64,000 nucleotides of DNA, from assembly GCA_016875635.1 (NCBI GenBank), contig VGPD01000002.1, positions 13,090 through 77,089 on the forward strand, given 5' to 3'. The stretch is from Chloroflexota bacterium. Its GTDB lineage: Bacteria > Chloroflexota > Dehalococcoidia > UBA2979. Every line of letters begins with the position of its first letter. The first letter of the stretch is position 1. The translations under genes and the position numbers were made by a program. The notes beneath the pieces are model-generated. The model was not told where the DNA came from and searched no databases. It worked only from the letters and a program-made list of their open reading frames with translations. Below, one piece after another: positions 1,871-14,211 of the stretch.

Positions 1871-3864
1871 CGGCGGCGATCGGCGAGCAGCATCTCGAGC
1901 GTCCTGAGCAGTCCGTTGCGGAGCGAGGGGTGTTTGATGGGGGTGAGCACCTCGATCCGTTCGTCGAGGTTGCGCTTCATCAGGTCCGCGCTGCCGATGA
2001 AGATCTCTGGATGGCCGTCGTTCTCGAAGTAGTACGCGCGTGAGTGCTCCAGGAAGCGGCCGATGATGCTGATCACGCGGATCCGCTCGCTGAGGCCAGG
2101 CACGCCCGGCCTCAGCCGGCATATCCCGCGCACAATCAGGTCCACCTGGACGCCGGCCTGGCCGGCCCGGTACAGCAGCCGGGTGAAGTCACGGTCTTCC
2201 AGCGCGTTCATCTTGAAGATGATCCGGGCGGGCCGTCCGGCCCGTGCCGCCTCGATCTCACGTTCGACGCGGCGCTCCAACTCCGTGCGCAGGTTGATCG
2301 GTGCGACGAGCAGTTCGCGGGTGTCGAACCCTTCAGACATCCCCGTGAGGTGGTTGAAGACGCGCAGGAGGTCGCTGCAGATCGTGGGGTCAGAGGTGAA
2401 CAGGCCCAGGTCGGTGTAGACGCGCGCCGTGCGGGAGTTGTAGTTCCCGGTCCCGATGTGGCCGTACATCACGACCCCATTGACCTCCTCGCGCACCACG
2501 AGTGTGATCTTGCTGTGGACCTTCCGCCCGGGGTCCCCATAGCCAACGTGGATGCCTGCCTCCTCCAGCCGTCGTGCCCACTCGATGTTGTTCTCCTCGT
2601 CGAGGCGGGCGGTCAGTTCCACGAGCACCGCGACCTGCTTCCCGCGGGTGGAGGCCTCGATGAGCGACTGCAGGATCGGCGAGTCAGGGGATGTGCGGTA
2701 GGTCGTGTGTTTGATGGCGAGTACCTGCGGGTCGAGTGACGCTTCTTCGATGAAACGTGCGACCGTCGCATCGAACGACTCGTACGGGTGGTGCACCAGC
2801 ATGTCCTCGGACTGCAACGCCGCGAAAAACGCCGGCCGGTCCGTCAGGTTCGTGAATGCTGGCGGTATGGCCGGCGTTGTGAGGTGGAACGTCGCGTCGG
2901 CGAGCGGCAGACCGGCGACCTGGTGCAGGTCGACGAGGCCGAGCGGGCCGGTGCACTGGACGACATCGCCTCGCCCGAGGTCCAATTCTTCCAACAGCAG
3001 CTCTTCGCGTTCCGGGGTCAGCGCCACCGTGACTTCAAGGCTGACCGCCTCAGCCAGTCGGCGGCGCCTGACCTCCCGCTCGATCAGTTCGAGAAGGTCT
3101 TCGGCGGCTTCTCCGGGCGTCCCGAGTTCGATGCTCCTGAGCGCTCGCAGCATGCTGTGTTCGATGATCTCGACGCCGGGAAACAGCACGTTGAGGTGGG
3201 CGCCGATGAGGTCCTCGAGCAGGACGAACCGCATGTCGCCCGCCTCGACGAAACGGGGCCGGTTCTGCGGGACCTTCACCCGTGCGAACCGGTCGGTGCC
3301 CGTGCGCGGATCACGTAACCAGAGGGCAAGGGAGAGGCTGTTCGCGGAGATGAACGGGAAGGGGTGGGCAGGGTCGACGACCAGAGGGGTCAGCACCGGA
3401 TACACGGAGGTCATGAAGTAGTCGGTCAGCGACGCCCGCGCGGCGGGGTCGAGCGAGCCGAACGTGACAACGCGCACTCCGCGTGCTTCGAGCGCTGGTA
3501 CGAGCGTGCCGTGCCAACAGGCCTCGATCTCACGCCGCTGTGCGGCGCACCGCGCCGCGACCAGGGCGGACTGCTCCGCGATGCTGAGCCCATCGACCGT
3601 CAGGTGTCCGGGGTTCGTCCGCAGAATCTGCTTCAGCCAGGCGACCCGCTTCGAATAAAACTCATCGAGGTTGCTCGACGTAATCGCAAGGAACCGGACG
3701 CGCTCAAGCAGCGGGTTCCGCGGATCACAGGCCTCAGCGAGGACGCGGTCGTTGAAGTCGAGCCACGATAGTTCGCGGTTCTCGTAGAGGGAGATGTCAT
3801 CGAGGTCGACCGGCGGCGGGGCCGTCTCCGCATCGGGGGTTTGTTCAGTACCCATTCCATGCAC
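1759..3864 (-). CDS. ppk: polyphosphate kinase 1
   Basis: 701 aa. N-terminal LYxNRELSWLxFNxRVL, PLD-like HxK motifs (KVHSKITLV...), and a C-terminal LEHSRAYYF...GSADLMKRNLDERIEV. Confidence 0.9.
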   Translation of the reverse strand: MHGMGTEQTPDAETAPPPVDLDDISLYENRELSWLDFNDRVLAEACDPRNPLLERVRFLAITSSNLDEFYSKRVAWLKQILRTNPGHLTVDGLSIAEQSALVAARCAAQRREIEACWHGTLVPALEARGVRVVTFGSLDPAARASLTDYFMTSVYPVLTPLVVDPAHPFPFISANSLSLALWLRDPRTGTDRFARVKVPQNRPRFVEAGDMRFVLLEDLIGAHLNVLFPGVEIIEHSMLRALRSIELGTPGEAAEDLLELIEREVRRRRLAEAVSLEVTVALTPEREELLLEELDLGRGDVVQCTGPLGLVDLHQVAGLPLADATFHLTTPAIPPAFTNLTDRPAFFAALQSEDMLVHHPYESFDATVARFIEEASLDPQVLAIKHTTYRTSPDSPILQSLIEASTRGKQVAVLVELTARLDEENNIEWARRLEEAGIHVGYGDPGRKVHSKITLVVREEVNGVVMYGHIGTGNYNSRTARVYTDLGLFTSDPTICSDLLRVFNHLTGMSEGFDTRELLVAPINLRTELERRVEREIEAARAGRPARIIFKMNALEDRDFTRLLYRAGQAGVQVDLIVRGICRLRPGVPGLSERIRVISIIGRFLEHSRAYYFENDGHPEIFIGSADLMKRNLDERIEVLTPIKHPSLRNGLLRTLEMLLADRRRCFWTWGGAWTITTATATPKPSQSRTGSPGGRIENLP

Positions 3865-5554: not shown

Positions 5555-5746
5555 ATGGACGTGTCCAACAGCACCGACGTGTTTCTGCGAGCGATGGTCT
5601 CGCAGGCACCGGTCTACATCGTGGCGATCGACGGCGAGGGGCGCTTCGTCAGGCTCGAAGGCGATCTGGTGCGAAGGATGGGGATCGACCCGGAGCGAGC
5701 GATCGGGGCATCGGCGTTCGATTACCTGCAGGTGTGCCGGTCCTAG
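5555..5746 (+). CDS. short PAS-like fragment ORF (possible remnant)
   Basis: MDVSNSTDVFLRAMVSQAPVYIVAIDGEGRFVRLEGDLVRRMGIDPERAIGASAFDYL looks like the N-terminal half of a PAS fold. Too short for a full domain, and it overlaps the 3' end of the SARP gene. Confidence 0.25.
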   Translation: MDVSNSTDVFLRAMVSQAPVYIVAIDGEGRFVRLEGDLVRRMGIDPERAIGASAFDYLQVCRS

Positions 5747-6942
5747 ACCGCTGTGAGCGCCTCCATGAGTGCCCGCTCGACCACGGCGGAAGGCTGCGCC
5801 CCCACCTCGCTCCTCAGGATGCGGCGGTAGTCCTCGTACTGCCGGCGTGCGTCCGTTCGCCGTCCCAGGTGGCCGTAATAGGTGATCAGCGCGACCTGGA
5901 ACTGCTCCTGGAGCGGGTCAGATTGCAACGCGCGTTCGCAGCATTCCACGCTCTGCTCGATGGCGCCGCGCACGGCGAAGGAGACGGCTGCCCGCGCGAG
6001 CAGGTCGTGGTAGAGCCGGCGCAGCCGGCGGTGGTGCGCGGTGGCCCACGCGCCGAAATCCTCTCCGGCGGCGAAGTCACCGCGGTACAGCGCGAGTGCG
6101 TCCTCGATGGCGGACGGAGATCCGACGCCGTCGCCGGCGCGAAGCGCAGCATGCGCACGGGTTTCGAAATCCACCGCGTCAATACGCAGCGTGGGAGTTT
6201 CATCGAGCACGTACATGGTGCCCTGACGCCGCAGCGGGACGTCCGGGCCGGCCGAGTTGAGCAGTTGCCGCAGGCCGTGGAGGAGTACGCGGAGCCGGGG
6301 GCCTGAGAGATCGATCGACTCGTCCGGCCAGAGATCCTCCGCGATCCAGTCGCGTTGCGCGCCGCCCGGACCGGCGATCGCGAGGTAGGCGAGCAATTCA
6401 AGCACCCGCCGCCGTGGTGGCATCGGCAGCGGGACGCCACCGGCGAGGAGTGCCACCGGGCCGAGCAGGCGGATGTCCAGGGTGGCGTTGGCCGGGGCGG
6501 TTGCTCCGCGGACGTGGATCGTGACGAGCGCGACCTCGCCTCCGGCCTCGCGGGACGGGGCGGCGATGACCGAGCCGCTGATCGGGATGCGACGGCCGTC
6601 GCGTGTCTGCCATTCGGCCCACGGGAGCGGCACAGGTTCATGTCGCACCAGCGCGTCGTAGACCGGACAGTCGACGGTCTGGCAGAGGCACTGCCCGTCG
6701 GGCAGGCCCGCGCCCATCAGTTCGTCGCAGGCGCGCCCCAGAATCTGGTCTTCCGGGATGCCCATGAGGTTCCGTGCGGCCTCGTTGGCGGCCAGGACGC
6801 GCTGCCCGGCGCCCACCACAAACGCGGCGTCCGCCGTGAGGTTCACCAGGTCGCTCAGCCTCATGGGAGTCCCATTCAAGGCAATCTGCTGTAACTGGGA
6901 TGTAACTCCCGACTCAGGGTGACCGGAAGTGACCAACGTCAC
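5743..6942 (-). CDS. SARP-family transcriptional regulator with N-terminal Cys-rich PAS-like sensor domain (PAS + OmpR-type wHTH + BTAD)
   Basis: LLGPVALLAGGVPLPMPPRRRVLELLAYLAIAGPGGAQRDWIAEDLWPDE is a SARP winged-helix. ALALYRGDFAAG...PLQEQFQVALITYYGHLGRRTDARRQYEDYRRILRSEVGAQPS is a BTAD. The N-terminal region has C-x13-C-x-C-x4-C. The track start is GTG at 6942; an ATG at 6864 is the alternative. Confidence 0.75.
   Translation of the reverse strand: MTLVTSGHPESGVTSQLQQIALNGTPMRLSDLVNLTADAAFVVGAGQRVLAANEAARNLMGIPEDQILGRACDELMGAGLPDGQCLCQTVDCPVYDALVRHEPVPLPWAEWQTRDGRRIPISGSVIAAPSREAGGEVALVTIHVRGATAPANATLDIRLLGPVALLAGGVPLPMPPRRRVLELLAYLAIAGPGGAQRDWIAEDLWPDESIDLSGPRLRVLLHGLRQLLNSAGPDVPLRRQGTMYVLDETPTLRIDAVDFETRAHAALRAGDGVGSPSAIEDALALYRGDFAAGEDFGAWATAHHRRLRRLYHDLLARAAVSFAVRGAIEQSVECCERALQSDPLQEQFQVALITYYGHLGRRTDARRQYEDYRRILRSEVGAQPSAVVERALMEALTAV
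6890..6907 (+). promoter_or_regulatory. tandem heptamer direct repeat TGTAACT-GGGA-TGTAACT (SARP-box-like, 11-bp periodicity)
   Basis: Read directly. It lies in the extreme 5' region or leader of the SARP gene, on the opposite strand. Confidence 0.4.
6929..6942. promoter_or_regulatory. 14-bp palindrome GTGACCAACGTCAC (candidate operator) at the SARP gene start
   Basis: Perfect inverted repeat GTGAC/GTCAC with a 4-bp spacer. A third GTGAC copy sits 7 bp upstream. Confidence 0.3.
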
Positions 6943-7044
6943 GCAGACGGATGTCTCCTGGCCCTCATTTCCGCCCGGCCGCCCGACGAATATGGCGGCG
7001 AATTCAAGTTAGGCGCTCAGATTGGTGGATGCGGTCGGCGGCGC

Positions 7045-7062
7045 TGTAACTGACGAGTAACT
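7045..7062 (+). promoter_or_regulatory. tandem heptamer direct repeat TGTAACT-GACG-AGTAACT (SARP-box-like), about 8 bp upstream of a -10-like GAGAAT, in front of the molybdoenzyme operon
   Basis: Read directly. The 7+4+7 architecture is the same as in known SARP binding sites. GAGAAT is at 7072-7077, and the alpha-subunit ATG is at 7147. Confidence 0.45.
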
Positions 7063-7146
7063 CGCAAGGGGGAGAATCCACGCAGATCGCGCATGCGGTC
7101 ACAAGCGCAAAGCGTACCGGTGTGGACGGAATCTGGAGCACGCCCG

Positions 7147-10100
7147 ATGAATGACCAGGCTCGGCTGCCTCGACGGTCGTTTCTGAAGCGCGCGGCGGCG
7201 ATCGGCGCTGGGGTCGCCCTTGCGGACGCACTGGCGTTCGAGCCGTGGCATCTGGAGGCGAGCGATCCGGTCACGGTGACGGAGCCGCTGAAGATCTACC
7301 CGGACCGGAAGTGGGAGAGCGTCTACCGCGACCTCTGGAAGCCCGACAGTTCGTACGTCTTCACCTGCGCCCCGAATGACACGCACGACTGTCTCCTGAG
7401 CGCCCAGGTGAAGAACGGCGTGGTCGTGCGCATTGCCCCGACCTACGGGTACGGGAAGGCGAAGGACCGGAACGGCAACGGCGCCTCCCACCGGTGGGAT
7501 CCGCGCGCCTGCCAGAAGGGCCTCGCGCTGGCGCGGAAGTTCTACGGCGACCGGCGGGTGAAGGGGCCGATGATCCGCAAGGGCTTCAAGGAGTGGGCGG
7601 ACGCGGGCTTCCCGCGCGAGGCCGACACTGGCAAACCGAAGATGGACACCTCGAAGCGCGGCGAGGACTCGTGGCTCAAGTTGCCCTGGGATGAGGCGTA
7701 CGCGTACGCGGCGAAGGCCTACCAGAACATCGCCACCACGTACTCAGGCGACAAGGGGGCACAGTTCCTGCAGAAGCAGGGCTACGACCCCGACATGATC
7801 AGCGCGATGTCCGGCGCCGGGACGCGCGCCCTGAAGATCCGCGGCGGCATGCCGTTGCTGGGGATCGGGCGCATCTTCGGCTTCTACCGCCACGCGAATA
7901 CGCTGGCGCTGCTGGACGACAGCATCCGGAAGGTGGGCAAGGACGCGGCGCTGGGCGCACGCGGGTGGGACAACTACTCGTGGCACACCGACCTGCCGCC
8001 GGGCCACCCGATGGTCACCGGCCACCAGACATTCGAGTTCGACCTGTTCGCGCCGGAGTATGCCGACCTGGTGGTCATGTTCGGCATGAACTGGATCTCG
8101 ACGAAGATGCCGGACGGGCACTGGTTGGCCGAGGCCCGGATGAAGGGCACGCGCCTGATCACGGTGACCACGGACTACCAGTCCACCTCCAACCGGGCGG
8201 ACGAGGTCATCATGATCCGCCCCGGCACGGACGCGGCGCTCGCGCTCTCCTGCTCCCAGTACATCATCGCGAACCGGTTGTACGACGAGGCTGCGGTCAA
8301 GCGGACGACGGACCTGCCGTTGCTGATCCGCATGGACACGAAGAAGTTGCTCTCCGCGTCGGACCTGGTGTCCGGGTATCAAGCGGCGACACTCACGAAC
8401 TACGTGACGATGCTGCCGACTGGCCAGTCGATGCCGACGCCGACGCAGCAAGCGACGATGTACCTGACGCCCGAGCAGCGCGCAGAGTGGGGTGACTTCG
8501 TCGTCTGGGACGCCCGCACCAGCCGTGCCGTGCCTGTGACACGCGACCAGGTGGGCGACAAGTTCACGACCGACCCGGCGCTTGAGGGCGAATTCGAGGT
8601 GACGCTGGCCAACGGCCAGAAGGTCAAGGCACGCACCGTCTTCTCACTGGTCAGGCAGTACCTGGACGACAACTTCACGCCGGCCGTGGCCTCCGAGGTC
8701 ACCTGGGCGCCGCAGGCCGCGATCGAGGGGCTGGCGAAGCAGATTGCGAAGGCGAAGCAGAAGACCCTGCTGCCGCACGGGATGGGGCCCAACCACTTCT
8801 TCAACGCCCACCTGAAGGACCGCGCGATCTTCCTGCTCGCGGCATTGACCGACAACATCGGCCACATCGGTGGAAATGTCGGTTCGTACGCAGGGAACTA
8901 CCGCGGCTCGGTGTTCAACGGGATCCCCCAGTTCATCCAGGAGAACCCGTTCGATCTGGAGCTCGACCCCACGAAGCCGGCCCGGCAGAAGGGCTACTAC
9001 AAGAGCGAGTCCGCCCACTACTACAACTACGGCGACCGACCACTGCGGGTCGGGAACAAGAACTTCACGGGCAAGTCGCACATGCCGTCGCCCACGAAGT
9101 TGATCCACGTCGGCAACTCCAACTCGCTGCTGGGGAACGCGAAGTGGCACCACGATGTCGTCCACAACACGCTGCCGAGGATCGAAGCGATCTTCGTGAA
9201 CGAGTGGTGGTGGACGGCCTCCTGTGAGTACGCGGACATCGTGTTCGGGGTGGACTCGTGGGCGGAGCACAAGTTCGTGGACGCGTCCGCGTCCTGCACC
9301 AACCCGTTCCTGCACATCTACCCGCGCTCGCCCCTGAAGCGGATCTTCGACACGCGCTCCGACTACGAGGTGCTGGCGGGGGTAGGGAAGGCGCTGGGCG
9401 CGCTCACCAATGACCAGCGCTTTGTGGACGCGTGGAAGTTCATCCACGAAGGGAAGTCGGAGGTCTACCTCCAGCGCATCTTCAACGCCTCCACGACCGC
9501 CCGCGGCTACGACGTCCTCGACCTGGAGGCGAAGGCCCAGCAGGGGATCCCGGCGCTGATGAATTTCCGCACCTACCCCCGTCAGGGTGGCTGGGAACAG
9601 CGGAACGAGAGCAAGCCGCAATACACGAAGACGGGCCGGCTGGAGTTTTACCGGGACGAGGCGGAATTCATCGAGCACGGGGAGAACCTGCCGGTGTTCC
9701 GCGAGCCGATCGACTCCACGTTCCACGAACCGAACGTGATCCACGGGAAGCCACACCCGATGCTCGCGCCGAGCGGGCCGGAGGTGTACGGGCTGAAAGT
9801 GGACGACCTCTCCGCGGAGGCGCGCCAGGTGCGCAACGTGGTGAAGTCGTGGTCGGAGTTGAAGGTCACGAAGCACCCGCTGACCAACAAGGATCCGAAC
9901 TTCAAGTTCATCTTCATCACGCCGAAGTACCGACACGGCGCGCACACGACGCCGGTCGACCTCGACTGGATCTCGATGCTGTTCGGCCCGTACGGGGACA
10001 TCCGGCGGCAGGACAAGCGCGCCCCGTGGGTGGGTGAGGGGTACATCGAGATCCACCCGAAGGACGCGAAGGCATTCGGCATCGAGGACGGTGACTACGT

Positions 10101-10620
10101 CTGGTTCGACGCCGACCCGGAGGACCGCCCGTACCGCGGGTGGAAAAAGGACGACCCGTACTACAAGGTGGCCCGCGGCATGGCACGGGCCCGGTACCAG
10201 GCCTCGTTGCAGCCCGGCGTCACGCGCATGTGGTTCCACATGTACGTCGCGACGAAGGGCTCGGTGAAGGGGCAGGCGACACGTCCCGACGGGCTGGCGA
10301 AGAGCCCCGAGACGAACTACCAGGCGATGTTCCGCTCCGGCAGCCACCAGAGCGGTACGCGCGCCTGGCTCGGGCCCACGCTGCAAACCGAGACCATGGC
10401 CCGCAAGCCGTACTTCGGGCAGTTGATGGGGAAGGGGTTCGAGGGGGACGTCCACTCGGTGGTCGGTGCTCCCAAGGAGTCCTTCATCAAGATCGAGCGT
10501 GCCGAAGAGGGCGCGGTGGGCGGCAAGGGCCTGTGGCTCCCCGCGAAGGAAGGACTGCGTCCGACCTACGAGTCCGACGCGATGAAGAAGTACCTGAGCG
10601 GCGCGTTCTTCAGCGCGTAG
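7147..10620 (+). CDS. Tat-exported molybdopterin oxidoreductase alpha subunit, NarG-like (type II DMSO reductase family; NxrA/pNarG-like), unknown substrate
   Basis: Twin-arginine motif [14 protein letters not shown]. The N-terminus aligns residue by residue with E. coli NarG FS0 (NarG THGVNCTGSCSWKIYVKNG versus here [19 protein letters not shown]), then RAC.KG and PMIRKG as in NarG. Start is preferred at ATG 7147 (GGAG 8 nt upstream) rather than the track start 7093. 1157 aa. Confidence 0.85.
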
Positions 10621-10659: not shown

Positions 10660-11790
10660 ATGCCTGACGTCTTCAACTGGCAGCTCGACCGTCCGATGAA
10701 GTACCAGTACGAGGAGGCGCGACCCCAGAAGCAGATCGCGTGGATCTTCGACACGAACAAGTGCATCGCGTGCCAGACCTGCACCATTGCGTGCAAATCC
10801 ACCTGGACCTCCGGCAGCGGCCAGGAGTACATGCTCTGGAACAACGTGGAGACGAAGCCGTTTGGCTTCTTCCCCACAGGCTGGGACGTGAAGCTCCTGG
10901 AGATCATGGGCCCGGACGCCTGGAAGGACGGGAAGTTCGCCGGCCAGACCGTCTTCGAGTCCGCGCCAGCCGCGGAGCGGGTGAAGGGCCACCTGTTCGA
11001 CGCCGACCACTGGTCCCACCCGAACCTGGGTGAGGACGAGCCGGCAGGCGAGGCGGCACGCGGGACACACATCGACAAGCTGCCGCACGACATGTGGTTC
11101 TCCTACCTCGCGCGGATCTGCAACCACTGCACCTATCCCGCCTGTCTTGCGGCCTGTCCGCGGCAGGCGATCTACAAGCGGCCGGAGGACGGCATCGTCC
11201 TCGTCGACCAGGAGCGCTGTCGCGGCTATCAGGAGTGCGCGAGCGCCTGCCCGTACAAGAAGACGATGTACAACGAGGACACGCGGGTCACGGAGAAGTG
11301 CATCGCCTGCTACCCGAAGATCGAGCAGGGGCTGCAGCCGCAGTGCGTCACCTCCTGTATCGGGAGGATCCGCCTCGCGGGTTTCATCAGCCCTCCGGGC
11401 AAGATCGACCCGAAGAACCCGATCGACTATCTGGTGAAGGTGAAGAAGGTCGCGCTGCCGCTGTACCCGCAGTCCGGCACCGAGCCGAACGTCTACTACA
11501 TCCCGCCGGTCCACTCGAAGCGCGAGTACCTCCGCCAGATGTTCGGCCCGGGCGTGGATGTCGCCGTCGACACCTACCTGAAGACCAAGGAAGACCCGCA
11601 GATGCTGGGCCTGTTCATGCTCTTCGGGTCGACCGAACGGATCATCCGGCAGTTCGAAGTGAAGGGCAGCATGGCGATCGGATACGACGAGACGGGGAAG
11701 GAGCTGGTGAGCGTCCCCGTCACGGAACCCAGCGTGGTGCGTGAATACTTCGACCGGGTGAACCAGACGTACGTCCACAACATCACCTAG
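10660..11790 (+). CDS. iron-sulfur beta subunit, NarH/NxrB/EbdB-like (four Cys clusters)
   Basis: QIAWIFDTNKCIACQTCTIACK, CNHCTYPACLAACP, CRGYQECASACP and CIACYPK...CVTSCIGRIR. 376 aa, shorter than NarH. Confidence 0.85.
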   Translation: MPDVFNWQLDRPMKYQYEEARPQKQIAWIFDTNKCIACQTCTIACKSTWTSGSGQEYMLWNNVETKPFGFFPTGWDVKLLEIMGPDAWKDGKFAGQTVFESAPAAERVKGHLFDADHWSHPNLGEDEPAGEAARGTHIDKLPHDMWFSYLARICNHCTYPACLAACPRQAIYKRPEDGIVLVDQERCRGYQECASACPYKKTMYNEDTRVTEKCIACYPKIEQGLQPQCVTSCIGRIRLAGFISPPGKIDPKNPIDYLVKVKKVALPLYPQSGTEPNVYYIPPVHSKREYLRQMFGPGVDVAVDTYLKTKEDPQMLGLFMLFGSTERIIRQFEVKGSMAIGYDETGKELVSVPVTEPSVVREYFDRVNQTYVHNIT

Positions 11791-11834: not shown

Positions 11835-12779
11835 ATGGCAACAGATTCAGATGGGCCGGCTGGCACGCAGCAGAGTGAGACAACGGCAGAGGTCGGCCGG
11901 CGACAGTTCCTCAAGCGCGCCGGCGCCGCGGCCGCTGCGGGGACAGTCGGCGCCGGCGTCATCGGCTATGCGGCGACGAACAAGCGAGGCGCGGCGAAGT
12001 CCCTCGTCTGCGGCTACCGCGCTGGCGACCTGCCGGTTGTTGATCCGGCAAGCGCGGTCTGGACGCGGCGGTCCGCGTTCAAAGTGACCATGCTGGTCCA
12101 GAACATCGCGACGCCGCATGCTCCGGCGCTGGTCGTGCCGACCCTGAAAGTGCGGGCGCTTCACAACGGCACGCAGATCGCCTTTCACCTCGAGTGGGCG
12201 GACAACTCGAAAGACGAATTGAGCGGCCTCGCACGGTTCAACGACGCGGTCGCAGTGCAACTGGCGGCAGATTTCGCGAAGGAGGCGGCGACCGGGGTGA
12301 CCATGGGGGCGGTGGACAACCCCGTGCATATCCTGCAGTGGAAGGCCTCCTGGCAGTCGGACCTGGACAGCGGTCAGAAAACCTCGAAGGACATCTGGCC
12401 GAACATCTACAACGACGTGCGTCCGGAGCAACTGATGCCGGTCGACCAGGCGAAGAGCTGGTACCCCGGCTGGGCGGTCGGAAACCCGCTCTCACAGCGG
12501 GACAAGAAGTCTCCGGTGGAAGAGATGGTCGCCGTCGGGTTTGGGACGCTCACGACACACAAAGAGCAGGAGGCTGTGGGGAAGGGCATCCACGATCGCA
12601 ACCGCTGGCGCGTCGTGATCGCAATGCCGATGAAGGGGAACGGCGCCAACAAGGCGCAGGTGACGCCTGGGCAGACCCGCCAGATCGCCTTCGCCGTCTG
12701 GGACGGCGGTGAGGATCAACGCGGCTCTCGCAAGCAGTACGCCCTCTGGGTGCCGATGGAAGTGGAGGCCGTCGCATGA
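11835..12779 (+). CDS. putative heme-b gamma subunit (EbdC/DdhC/NxrC-like, EB_dh family) with its own Tat signal
   Basis: RRQFLKRAGAAAAAGTVGAGVIGYAA twin-arginine signal. Its size and position after the beta gene match gamma subunits of type II enzymes. No CxxCH motif. Confidence 0.5.
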   Translation: MATDSDGPAGTQQSETTAEVGRRQFLKRAGAAAAAGTVGAGVIGYAATNKRGAAKSLVCGYRAGDLPVVDPASAVWTRRSAFKVTMLVQNIATPHAPALVVPTLKVRALHNGTQIAFHLEWADNSKDELSGLARFNDAVAVQLAADFAKEAATGVTMGAVDNPVHILQWKASWQSDLDSGQKTSKDIWPNIYNDVRPEQLMPVDQAKSWYPGWAVGNPLSQRDKKSPVEEMVAVGFGTLTTHKEQEAVGKGIHDRNRWRVVIAMPMKGNGANKAQVTPGQTRQIAFAVWDGGEDQRGSRKQYALWVPMEVEAVA

Positions 12780-13552
12780 CCACCGCAACGCAGTCGCTTC
12801 CCCTGCAGGCCGCCATCTTCCGCTCTGCGCTGTACGAGACGCTCGCGCTCAGTTTCGCCTACCCCACACCTCATCTCGGTGAGCGGCTCGAAGACGCCAT
12901 CGCCGACCTGCTTGAATTGCCTGAGGTCGCCGAGGCTGGTTACGCCGACGACCTGATGCGCATGCGCGACGCGTTGGCCGCGTCTTCGACGGACGTGCTC
13001 GCCATGGAGCACAACCATCTGTTCGAGCATTCGACGTTCTGTTCACCGTATGAGACCGAGTACGAGCCGGACCCGTTCGCGAAGGCGCGCCAGCTGGCGG
13101 ACATCGCCGGCTTCTACACCGCCTTCGGGATGTCCGTGTCCACGATGCGGCCCACGTTGCAGGACTTCCTTGGCACGGAGCTCGAGTTCATGTCGTTCCT
13201 GGCGCGGAAAGAGGCGTACGCCGCGGCGCGCAATTGGAGGCATCGCCGGCAGGTGACGGTGGACGCCGAACGTGCGTTCCTGCACGACCACCTCGGGCGG
13301 TGGGAGAAGGCGGTCTGCAAGGACGTCACGGACCACACGGCGATGGAAGCCGGCATGAACAGCGCGGCCCCGTTCTTTGGCGCCGTCGCCTCGCTGTGCG
13401 TCCGGTTCGTGGAGGACGAGCTCCGCCGCTTTGGCACGAAGCCGCTGCGTCTCACTCAGCGGATGGTCGGCAACGAAGAACCTGTCGCCTGTCCGTTCGC
13501 GAGCGCCGCCGCCGAGGACGAGCTCGAACCGCTTGACCCGGTCGAGGATTAG
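12776..13552 (+). CDS. TorD/NarJ-family redox-enzyme maturation chaperone (delta subunit)
   Basis: ATGA overlap with the gamma gene. Acidic all-alpha protein with EHNHLFE, GFYTAFG and FLARKEAY motifs typical of NarJ/TorD/EbdD-like chaperones. Confidence 0.65.
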   Translation: MTTATQSLPLQAAIFRSALYETLALSFAYPTPHLGERLEDAIADLLELPEVAEAGYADDLMRMRDALAASSTDVLAMEHNHLFEHSTFCSPYETEYEPDPFAKARQLADIAGFYTAFGMSVSTMRPTLQDFLGTELEFMSFLARKEAYAAARNWRHRRQVTVDAERAFLHDHLGRWEKAVCKDVTDHTAMEAGMNSAAPFFGAVASLCVRFVEDELRRFGTKPLRLTQRMVGNEEPVACPFASAAAEDELEPLDPVED

Positions 13553-13569: not shown

Positions 13570-14211
13570 GTGATGGTCACCGTGCAACGTACGGCCGGCC
13601 CGGCCGCCGCTCCTTCGACCACGCAGAGTGATGCGGAGTGGCTGACGGGTGTCTATGCGCGCTCTGCACAACGGCATGAACGCCTCTGTCCTCGGCAGGT
13701 CCTCGGTGTGCGCATGGGACTCGCGGCCGCGGAGGCGCTCGGCGTCGATCCGCGTGCGTCCGGGAAGGCACTCTACATCTTCGCAGAGACGGACGGCTGT
13801 TTCGCGGACGGTGTGGAGGCGGCCACCGGCTGTTCCATGGGGCACCGGAACATGCGACTGATGGACTACGGCCGAGTCGCGATCGTCGCGGTGCACATCG
13901 AGTCGGGTGCCGCGGTCCGCATATCCCCTGCGCCTGGCGTGCGTGAGGCTGCGTCGGCGTACGCGCCGGACGAGTCTCGGCGGTACTACCAGCAGCTGGA
14001 GGGTTACCAGGCGATGCCGGATGCGGATCTCCTCCGCATCCGCCCGGTGAGCCTGCGCGTCGACCTCGCCGCGTTGCTCGGTCGGAAGGGCTTGCGGGTC
14101 GACTGCGACCGCTGCGGGGAGGAGGTCCTCAATGGCCGCCAGCACCTCGAATCTGGCCGCCCGGTCTGCCAGGGATGCACAGGCGGGGCGTTCTACTCCG
14201 CGATGAGCTGA
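13570..14211 (+). CDS. FmdE-family protein with C-terminal zinc ribbon
   Basis: QVLGVRMGLAAAEALG...ETDGCFADGVEAATGCSMGHRNMRLMDYGRVAIVAV matches the FmdE domain. A C-terminal CDRCGEEV...CQGC is present. A GAGGAGG RBS precedes the gene. Confidence 0.6.
   Translation: MMVTVQRTAGPAAAPSTTQSDAEWLTGVYARSAQRHERLCPRQVLGVRMGLAAAEALGVDPRASGKALYIFAETDGCFADGVEAATGCSMGHRNMRLMDYGRVAIVAVHIESGAAVRISPAPGVREAASAYAPDESRRYYQQLEGYQAMPDADLLRIRPVSLRVDLAALLGRKGLRVDCDRCGEEVLNGRQHLESGRPVCQGCTGGAFYSAMS

Follow-up and report, generated by a model that had tools for sequence, protein, structure and literature searches.

A PAS-fused SARP-family regulator and candidate TGTAAC boxes at a predicted nitrate/nitrite oxidoreductase operon of a Dehalococcoidia bacterium

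Introduction

Regulators of the SARP family are known chiefly from actinomycetes, and their target promoters carry direct repeats set 11 or 22 bp apart, with 8 bp between the 3′ repeat and the −10 element (PMC10936776). The afs box is 22 bp long, has its centre at −29.5 and overlaps a poor −35 element; on such DNA two SARP protomers lie side by side, each touching an 11-bp unit over its first 8 bp, and region 4 of the sigma factor rests on the SARP dimer in place of the −35 element (PMC10936776). Here we analyse a stretch of 64,000 nucleotides from a Chloroflexota bacterium of the class Dehalococcoidia (assembly GCA_016875635.1, contig VGPD01000002.1; this whole stretch is called the window), in which the gene for a small SARP with an N-terminal PAS domain diverges from an operon predicted to encode a nitrate/nitrite oxidoreductase. 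Two pairs of heptamer repeats with the core TGTAAC lie in the intergenic region that the two share. We consider it probable, from comparison of related loci, that both pairs are binding sites of this divergently encoded PAS-SARP and that the proximal pair serves to activate the nxr-like operon.

The best match to the regulator in both sequence and structure is EmbR of Mycobacterium tuberculosis (2FEZ, 2FF4), which is likewise a SARP module fused to an input domain; EmbR receives its input through a C-terminal FHA domain, which reads phosphorylation, whereas the regulator described here carries an N-terminal PAS domain. AfsR, which acts on the afs box of the Streptomyces coelicolor afsS promoter (8HVR, 8K60, 8JKE), is similar in having an OmpR-type domain and a BTA module, and the two promoters are alike in a pair of 11-bp direct repeats laid over the −35 region, in a weak or absent −35 element and in a box centre near −29. 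The systems differ in the sequence of the repeat (TGTAAC here) and in two of the residues that would read it, as set out below. In addition, AfsR has C-terminal NOD and TPR domains where our regulator has the N-terminal PAS domain, and its target is an antibiotic regulator gene, in contrast to the respiratory enzymes of a Dehalococcoidia-like host. The small SARPs ActII-ORF4, DnrI and RedD share with this locus a regulator gene that adjoins its target operon and heptamers 11 bp apart at about 8 bp from the −10 element, but the heptamer here is of a different type, a sensor domain has been added, there is no secondary-metabolite cluster and the host is not an actinomycete.

Two broader groups of regulators are relevant for comparison. 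The pho box bound by PhoB, like other promoters of the OmpR family, is built from 7-bp repeats with 4-bp spacers (an 11-bp period), replaces the −35 element and is occupied by tandem winged-helix protomers. Unlike PhoB, the regulator considered here lacks a receiver domain and has BTAD and PAS domains, and it would therefore represent a one-component rather than a two-component system. Denitrification is governed in other bacteria by regulators that respond to O2 or nitric oxide (NO), among them FNR/DNR/NnrR, NsrR and NreB, a PAS Fe-S sensor of Staphylococcus. The role that we propose below resembles theirs, namely to switch on nitrate/nitrite and nitrous oxide (N2O) respiration in response to a redox or N-oxide signal, and NreB is also alike in its cysteine-bearing PAS domain; the output of these proteins, however, is a CRP/FNR or Rrf2 domain or a kinase instead of a SARP module, and their site is a palindrome instead of a direct repeat.

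Results

The two box pairs read TGTAACTgggaTGTAACT at 6890-6907 (the distal box) and TGTAACTgacgAGTAACT at 7045-7062 (the proximal box), both on the + strand and both consisting of direct repeats with a period of 11 bp (Table 1). A preliminary description of this DNA had drawn attention to tandem heptamer repeats of that period in the promoter region; they are present exactly as it gave them, and far beyond chance expectation. The hexamer GTAACT occurs only five times on the two strands of the window, which has a base composition of 64-72% G+C, and four of the five copies are those of the two pairs. When up to two mismatches were allowed, WGTAACT-N4-WGTAACT matched these two sites and nothing else, against about 0.05 matches expected from shuffled sequence. 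A weight matrix built solely from boxes at other loci gave the two sites 28.0 and 27.1 bits, compared with 7.6 bits for the next real match in the window and 17.1 bits for the best match across 30 shuffled windows.

The same motif recurs beside relatives of the regulator gene. Twenty-six full-length relatives were found (45-99% identity), all of them from metagenomes or metagenome-assembled genomes (MAGs), with Dehalococcoidia as the source wherever one is named, and comparative DNA was retrieved for 15 distinct loci. The layout of the window, with the regulator divergent from an NxrA-like gene, is repeated at L001, L003, L004/L017, L007, L009, L012, L016, L018, L019 and L020. At L010/L011, L014/L015 and L002 the genes that follow the regulator are a small hypothetical one, one for a cupredoxin and nosZ (in L002 also nosD), and at L013 they are radical-SAM genes and nnrS. 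Taken together, the nxr, nosZ and nnrS contexts tie the regulator family to nitrogen-oxide respiration rather than to a single enzyme. Both strands of the window and of every non-redundant locus, 147 kb in total, were scanned for GTAA-N7-GTAA. This returned 26 matches, where shuffled sequence gave a mean of 0.6 and a maximum of 4; GTAA pairs with periods of 6-10 or 12-16 bp did not occur at all in the same 147 kb on either strand. All 26 pairs are intergenic and each adjoins a regulator orthologue, and the consensus across loci is YGTAAC[TG]-nnnG-nGTAAC[TG]. At the loci whose regulators are 45-52% identical (L010, L014 and L002; Table 1), boxes stand before a small hypothetical gene of 118-169 amino acids, with weak Nitro_FeMo-Co similarity in two cases, and before the cupredoxin-nosZ(-nosD) cluster, and a third kind of target, found in L010 only, is an operon of a small membrane peptide, Rrf2 and the regulator. 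Given the boxes before nosZ clusters, the predicted regulon takes in N2O reductase. Boxes and regulator gene thus occur together at every readable related locus, including those with other target operons, and this supports the reading of the repeats as SARP boxes as a whole.

The intergenic regions of eight nxr loci were aligned (alignment A2; mean column identity 70%), and within their diverged flanks the invariant islands are TGTAACTG, GTAAC and GGAnnATCC. The last of these contains the −10-like hexamer and accounts for the invariant columns G210, G211, A212, A215, T216, C217 and C218. In the window, the promoter reads TGTAACTgacgAGTAACT-cgcaagggg followed by the hexamer GAGAAT. The same hexamer follows the box after 9 bp in L001 and L020, as it does in L017, where the box is CGTAAGTcctgCGTAATA; at the same distance L018, L007, L003 and L016 have GATGAT, and L009 and L019 have GACAAT. 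A hexamer of the form nAnnnT is therefore found exactly 9 bp past the box in 10/10 nxr promoters, the length of the spacer being kept and its sequence not. Outside nxr promoters it stands at exactly this distance in seven of the eight independent boxes with a perfect core (GAGCAT, CAATCT, CACGCT, AACAAT, CACCCT, GATGGT and AACAAT), and nAnnnT has a chance probability of about 0.03 at any one site, given this base composition. The architecture of the proximal box is shared by 20 promoter-type boxes in other loci, and boxes of the promoter type lie roughly 30-70 bp upstream of start codons.

No consensus −35/−10 promoter was found between 6700 and 7300 on either strand, as would be expected for an activator-dependent promoter, and an ordinary sigma-70 promoter in the intergenic region was rejected for want of a match on either strand. 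In alignment A2 the −35 position, which falls within the upstream repeat, shows no conservation of sequence. If transcription starts at the predicted position 7084, a full 22-bp footprint would cover 7045-7066, or about −39 to −18, with the centre of the box at about −28.5. The proximal box agrees with each published DNA-level SARP feature to within 1 bp, and TGTAACTG, the invariant part of the 11-bp unit, may be compared with the first 8 bp contacted in SARP complexes (PMC10936776). The features that characterise SARP promoters are all seen: direct repeats 11 bp apart, a 3′ repeat about 8 bp from the predicted −10 and a poor −35 that is replaced. The SARP-type architecture put forward in the preliminary description is borne out, since the direct repeats, their 11-bp period, the fixed 9-bp gap to nAnnnT and the want of a −35 consensus are strictly conserved. 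Its figure of about 8 bp between the second set and GAGAAT is correct when counted from the conserved 8-mer, and becomes 9 bp when counted from the heptamer as drawn; its distance of about 70 bp to the alpha-subunit start fits ATG 7147, which sits 70 bp after the −10 hexamer. On these grounds the proximal box is most likely a SARP-dependent promoter with its −10 element at 7072-7077 and a predicted start near 7084. A ribosome-binding site, GGAG at 7135-7138, precedes ATG 7147. An alternative alpha start at ATG 7093, or a conserved upstream open reading frame there, was rejected, as it does not share the frame of the downstream start in the orthologue at L001 and meets a stop after 8 codons in L009.

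The regulator itself is a small SARP with an N-terminal PAS domain. Its start at ATG 6864 is fixed by the N-termini of the 26 orthologues, which places the distal pair upstream of the coding sequence and not inside it. The PAS domain occupies residues 1-120, and residues 124-372 form an OmpR-type winged helix directly before an all-helical BTAD, the arrangement that marks a SARP-family protein. Pfam recognises the BTAD (E 1.8e-17), and the family profile aligns with EmbR 2FEZ (E 7e-12) and with AfsR 8HVR, 8K60 and 8JKE (E about 1e-10) across the whole winged-helix and BTAD module (residues 124-372). A Foldseek search with the AlphaFold model, whose predicted local distance difference test score (pLDDT) is 86, returned EmbR (2FF4) and the SARP domain of AfsR (8K60, 8HVR) with target-normalised template-modelling (TM) scores of 0.76-0.77 across about 250 columns; the AfsR structures matched come from the AfsR-RNA polymerase initiation complex. 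The Pfam match, the profile matches across the full module and the predicted fold all agree with the proposal that the neighbouring regulator is a SARP. The usual association of SARPs with an actinomycete host and a secondary-metabolite cluster, which is not strictly defining, is not seen here. Pfam finds no receiver domain (Response_reg) in the protein. Its N-terminal 120 residues match PAS sensor domains, including those of the heme O2 sensors DOS and FixL, LOV domains and NifL.

Residues S187, R190, R192, V193, H196 and R199 of the recognition helix are invariant or nearly so across the 45-99% identical orthologues. In the family profile alignment, the base-contacting residues T88 and R92 of AfsR fall on V193 and G/A197, which is consistent with a DNA specificity unlike that of AfsR. 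The boxes themselves depart from the canonical TCGAGxx heptamer, as had been remarked at the outset, their consensus being YGTAAC[TG], and the suggestion that went with that remark, a recognition code different from those of known SARPs, appears plausible in the light of these replacements.

The alignment of orthologues also revealed invariant residues in the PAS domain (C46, C61, C66, H117 and two tryptophans) and a conserved Cys-Cys pair, 308/309, within SVECCE of the BTAD domain. The invariant Cys/His pattern is suggestive of a cofactor (metal, Fe-S or heme) or of a redox switch based on thiols, and in combination with the Cys-Cys pair and the gene contexts the PAS residues suggest redox, O2 or N-oxide sensing. 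At the other end of the gene, an inverted repeat ATGGGA-G-TCCCAT at 6863-6875 overlaps both the start codon of the regulator and a G-rich stretch lying upstream, and ATGGG..CCCAT repeats of a similar kind are present in 6/8 orthologous loci. In the regulator mRNA the inverted repeat might fold into a small hairpin that influences translation initiation.

The distal box spans the positions 26-43 bp upstream of the regulator ATG and faces away from the regulator gene; across loci its distance to the ATG is about 25-34 bp. Among the nine nxr-linked loci with regulators of 67% identity or more, it is kept in seven, being degenerate in L007 and lying in a rearranged region in L019, and it is absent from the group of 52-53% identity. 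In L019 (2670-3003) a complete unit of box, −10, leader and ribosome-binding site lies directly beside the regulator gene, and is followed by a GTGACC element and then by a second copy of the leader before nxrA without a recognisable box. This arrangement resembles the outcome of a duplication or recombination of the promoter unit.

Two further conserved elements lie in the intergenic region. Between the boxes is GAAGTGACCAACGTC, present as one exact copy in the window, of which GAAGTGACCA..GTC is invariant in eight loci; a related GGTGACTTTGGTCAT occurs in the group of 52% identity. In the window, this element reads GTGA-N6-TCAC and so resembles a CRP/FNR-type half-palindrome; in most loci the right half has the sequence TCCC or TCCT. 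Probably another factor binds here, or the element belongs to the promoter of the regulator gene itself. The second is a 24-nt leader element, TCGCGCATGCGGTCACAAGCGCAA, which occurs once in the window, varies hardly at all among eight loci and stands at a fixed offset of 28 bp from the −10 hexamer (27 bp in L007). An RNA structure or riboswitch was rejected as its explanation, with no Rfam match at E<=1 and only a weak 6-pair hairpin with one covarying pair from RNAalifold. The fixed offset from the −10 fits a function at the DNA level or at the 5′ end, and the leader could be an operator or a 5′-end RNA element. The two elements together would imply further inputs at this promoter region. Looping between the GTGACC element and the leader is not supported, their spacing varying over 166-176 bp without helical phasing.

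The operon downstream of the proximal box is predicted to encode a periplasmic nitrate/nitrite oxidoreductase of the NXR/Nar type that could work in either catalytic direction. Its alpha subunit matches subunit A of the Kuenenia nitrite oxidoreductase (7B04) over its full length (E 7e-273) and has the twin-arginine motif RRSFLK near its N-terminus. The rest of the window holds housekeeping genes, such as those for gyrA, acetyl-CoA carboxylase and a DEAD-box helicase. As these are its only other genes and no third box is present in the 64 kb, the next matrix score being the 7.6 bits given above, a wider local regulon was rejected.

Table 1. Positions of the regulator, boxes, conserved elements and operon genes in the window, and of boxes at the more distant orthologous loci
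Feature	Position	Strand	Basis or remark
Regulator gene, PAS-fused small SARP, 373 aa (amino acids)	5743-6864	-	Pfam PAS_4 and BTAD; profile and fold matches
Distal SARP-type box, TGTAACT-ggga-TGTAACT	6890-6907	+	Same orientation as proximal box
Conserved element between boxes, GAAGTGACCAACGTC	6926-6940	+	Partly invariant in eight loci
Proximal SARP-type box, TGTAACT-gacg-AGTAACT	7045-7062	+	Direct repeats, 11-bp period; invariant core across orthologous intergenic regions
−10-like hexamer, GAGAAT	7072-7077	+	Inside conserved GGAnnATCC (7070-7078); 9 bp past 3′ heptamer
Predicted transcription start, ~7084	7083-7085	+	Predicted, 6-8 nt past −10 hexamer
Conserved leader element, TCGCGCATGCGGTCACAAGCGCAA	7087-7110	+	About 3 nt past predicted start
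NxrA-type molybdopterin alpha subunit, twin-arginine translocation (Tat) signal	7147-10620	+	Pfam Molybdopterin; Kuenenia NxrA match
Fe-S beta subunit	10660-11790	+	Pfam; NCBIfam DMSO_red_II beta model
Heme-b gamma subunit, EB_dh domain	11835-12779	+	Pfam; NCBIfam DMSO_red_II gamma model
NarJ-like chaperone	12776-13552	+	Pfam; NCBIfam DMSO_red_II chaperone model
FmdE-domain protein	13570-14211	+	Pfam
Boxes at L010	67-99, 2050-2082, 2521-2553		Orthologues 45-52% identical
Boxes at L014	3874-3906, 4326-4358		Orthologues 45-52% identical
Box at L002	3711-3743		Orthologue 45-52% identical

Discussion

By homology to AfsR, we would expect the PAS-SARP to dimerise on the proximal box (7045-7066) once its PAS domain has adopted the active state, with two protomers placed side by side on the direct repeats along one face of the DNA. 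The dimer would take the place of the absent −35 element and recruit RNA polymerase to the −10-like hexamer, and transcription of the nxrA-like operon would then begin near 7084. The PAS domain presumably couples this activation to a redox, O2 or N-oxide signal. The distal box would be a second site of the same protein in the regulator's 5′ region, most likely for autoregulation.

A layout of 7-bp direct repeats with 4-bp spacers is common to the whole OmpR/PhoB winged-helix class, and on its own does not name the protein that binds. It is accordingly conceivable that the boxes are recognised by another member of that class encoded elsewhere, such as the response regulator of a two-component system. 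We regard this as improbable, because the PAS-SARP gene is the only one consistently found beside the boxes, in nxr, nosZ and radical-SAM/NnrS contexts alike, and its recognition helix is nearly invariant across 45-99% identity in parallel with the invariant GTAA core. No protein with a receiver domain, as the binder of a pho box would have, is encoded beside the boxes in the window according to Pfam, and no two-component gene is consistently linked to the related loci. About equally small is the likelihood that the PAS-SARP binds the proximal box as an operator and represses the nxr operon. The overlap of the box with the −35 region would suit a repressor, and the conserved leader element at the transcription start would be a further control on the nxr promoter; but a repressor would find no −35 consensus to occlude, the regulator has a BTAD activation domain and matches AfsR in an activating complex, and the distance from box to −10 is strictly fixed across unrelated targets, which is a constraint on an activator that contacts the polymerase and not on a repressor. 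That the repeats are non-functional, whether through chance or as remnants of small repeats or mobile elements, is contradicted by the chance statistics, by their invariance within diverged DNA and by their recurrence at different operons, and the comparative data effectively refute it.

Binding by the PAS-SARP with activation at the proximal box is therefore the reading that we favour, and several observations weigh against it. Many of the loci are kin by descent, such that the 26 occurrences are not 26 independent events. The nxr promoter of L012, where the regulator is 53% identical, has no clear box (region 2829-3000), and the sole box found there faces the regulator gene and is followed by TACATC, in which the final T of the −10 pattern is missing. 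On the protein side, Pfam Trans_reg_C stays below threshold on the window regulator, so that its winged helix rests on the alignment of PDB profiles and on the predicted fold; Pfam Trans_reg_C is recorded for the orthologue P0019. The distal box contributes two more such points. No −10 was found at the activating distance past the distal boxes, the hexamers 9 bp on (GGGTGA, ATGTAA, ATGGTG, CGCAGG, ACGGGG, GCGGCT and GTGGCC) including none with both A2 and T6, and the spacing between distal and proximal boxes varies over 150-161 bp without helical phasing.

Conserved, and without a −10 at 9 bp, the distal box is thus better seen as a putative binding site than as a promoter of the SARP-dependent type. 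A role as a second nxr promoter was rejected because a conserved −10 is lacking 9 bp away in the + direction, and a role as a reverse promoter for the regulator because ATTCAA, on its other side, shows neither conservation nor a constant distance. Given the variable spacing, looping between the two boxes is not supported either. The box likely mediates autoregulation, which could be of either sign. The form that we favour is negative autoregulation through occupation of the regulator's promoter or leader, to which we would give about an even chance; cooperative help for the nxr promoter is a distinctly weaker prospect, and other roles account for the remainder. Elsewhere in the family autoregulation looks positive, to judge from a box with a −10 before the small peptide-Rrf2-regulator operon of L010 and from the box facing the regulator gene in L012. 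The early suggestion that the upstream set might serve autoregulation can therefore be kept in part: the location is right, before ATG 6864, and autoregulation is plausible, but the orientation of the box and the missing −10 speak against the simple activating kind.

Membership of this system in the SARP family rests on the protein fold and the promoter architecture. New here are the host, a member of the Chloroflexota (Dehalococcoidia), the N-terminal PAS fusion, the TGTAAC motif and the proposed role in nitrogen-oxide respiration, including nosZ. Our search of the literature, in which the keyword matches were covered in part, returned nothing that ties SARP/BTAD regulators to Chloroflexota or to N-oxide respiration. 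A bolder reading, which we put forward tentatively and hold to be possible rather than probable, is that PAS-SARPs are an undescribed class of one-component sensors of O2, NO or redox state, with an Fe-S, heme or metal centre in the PAS domain (C46, C61, C66, H117), and that they act through TGTAAC boxes as master activators of N-oxide respiration in uncultured Dehalococcoidia. Were this so, their control would extend over the NXR/Nar-type oxidoreductase, NosZ and the NnrS-linked genes, and PAS-SARPs would fill in this phylum the role that FNR/DNR/NsrR-type regulators have in Proteobacteria.

To our knowledge, N2O reductase is the only known biological sink of the greenhouse gas N2O. The motif, the predicted transcription start and the candidate sensor domain described here give a testable model for the control of N-oxide respiration in an uncultured lineage, and the motif may be used for regulon prediction in Dehalococcoidia MAGs. 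As a natural SARP whose predicted DNA specificity is new, the regulator may also be helpful in working out the recognition code of the family.

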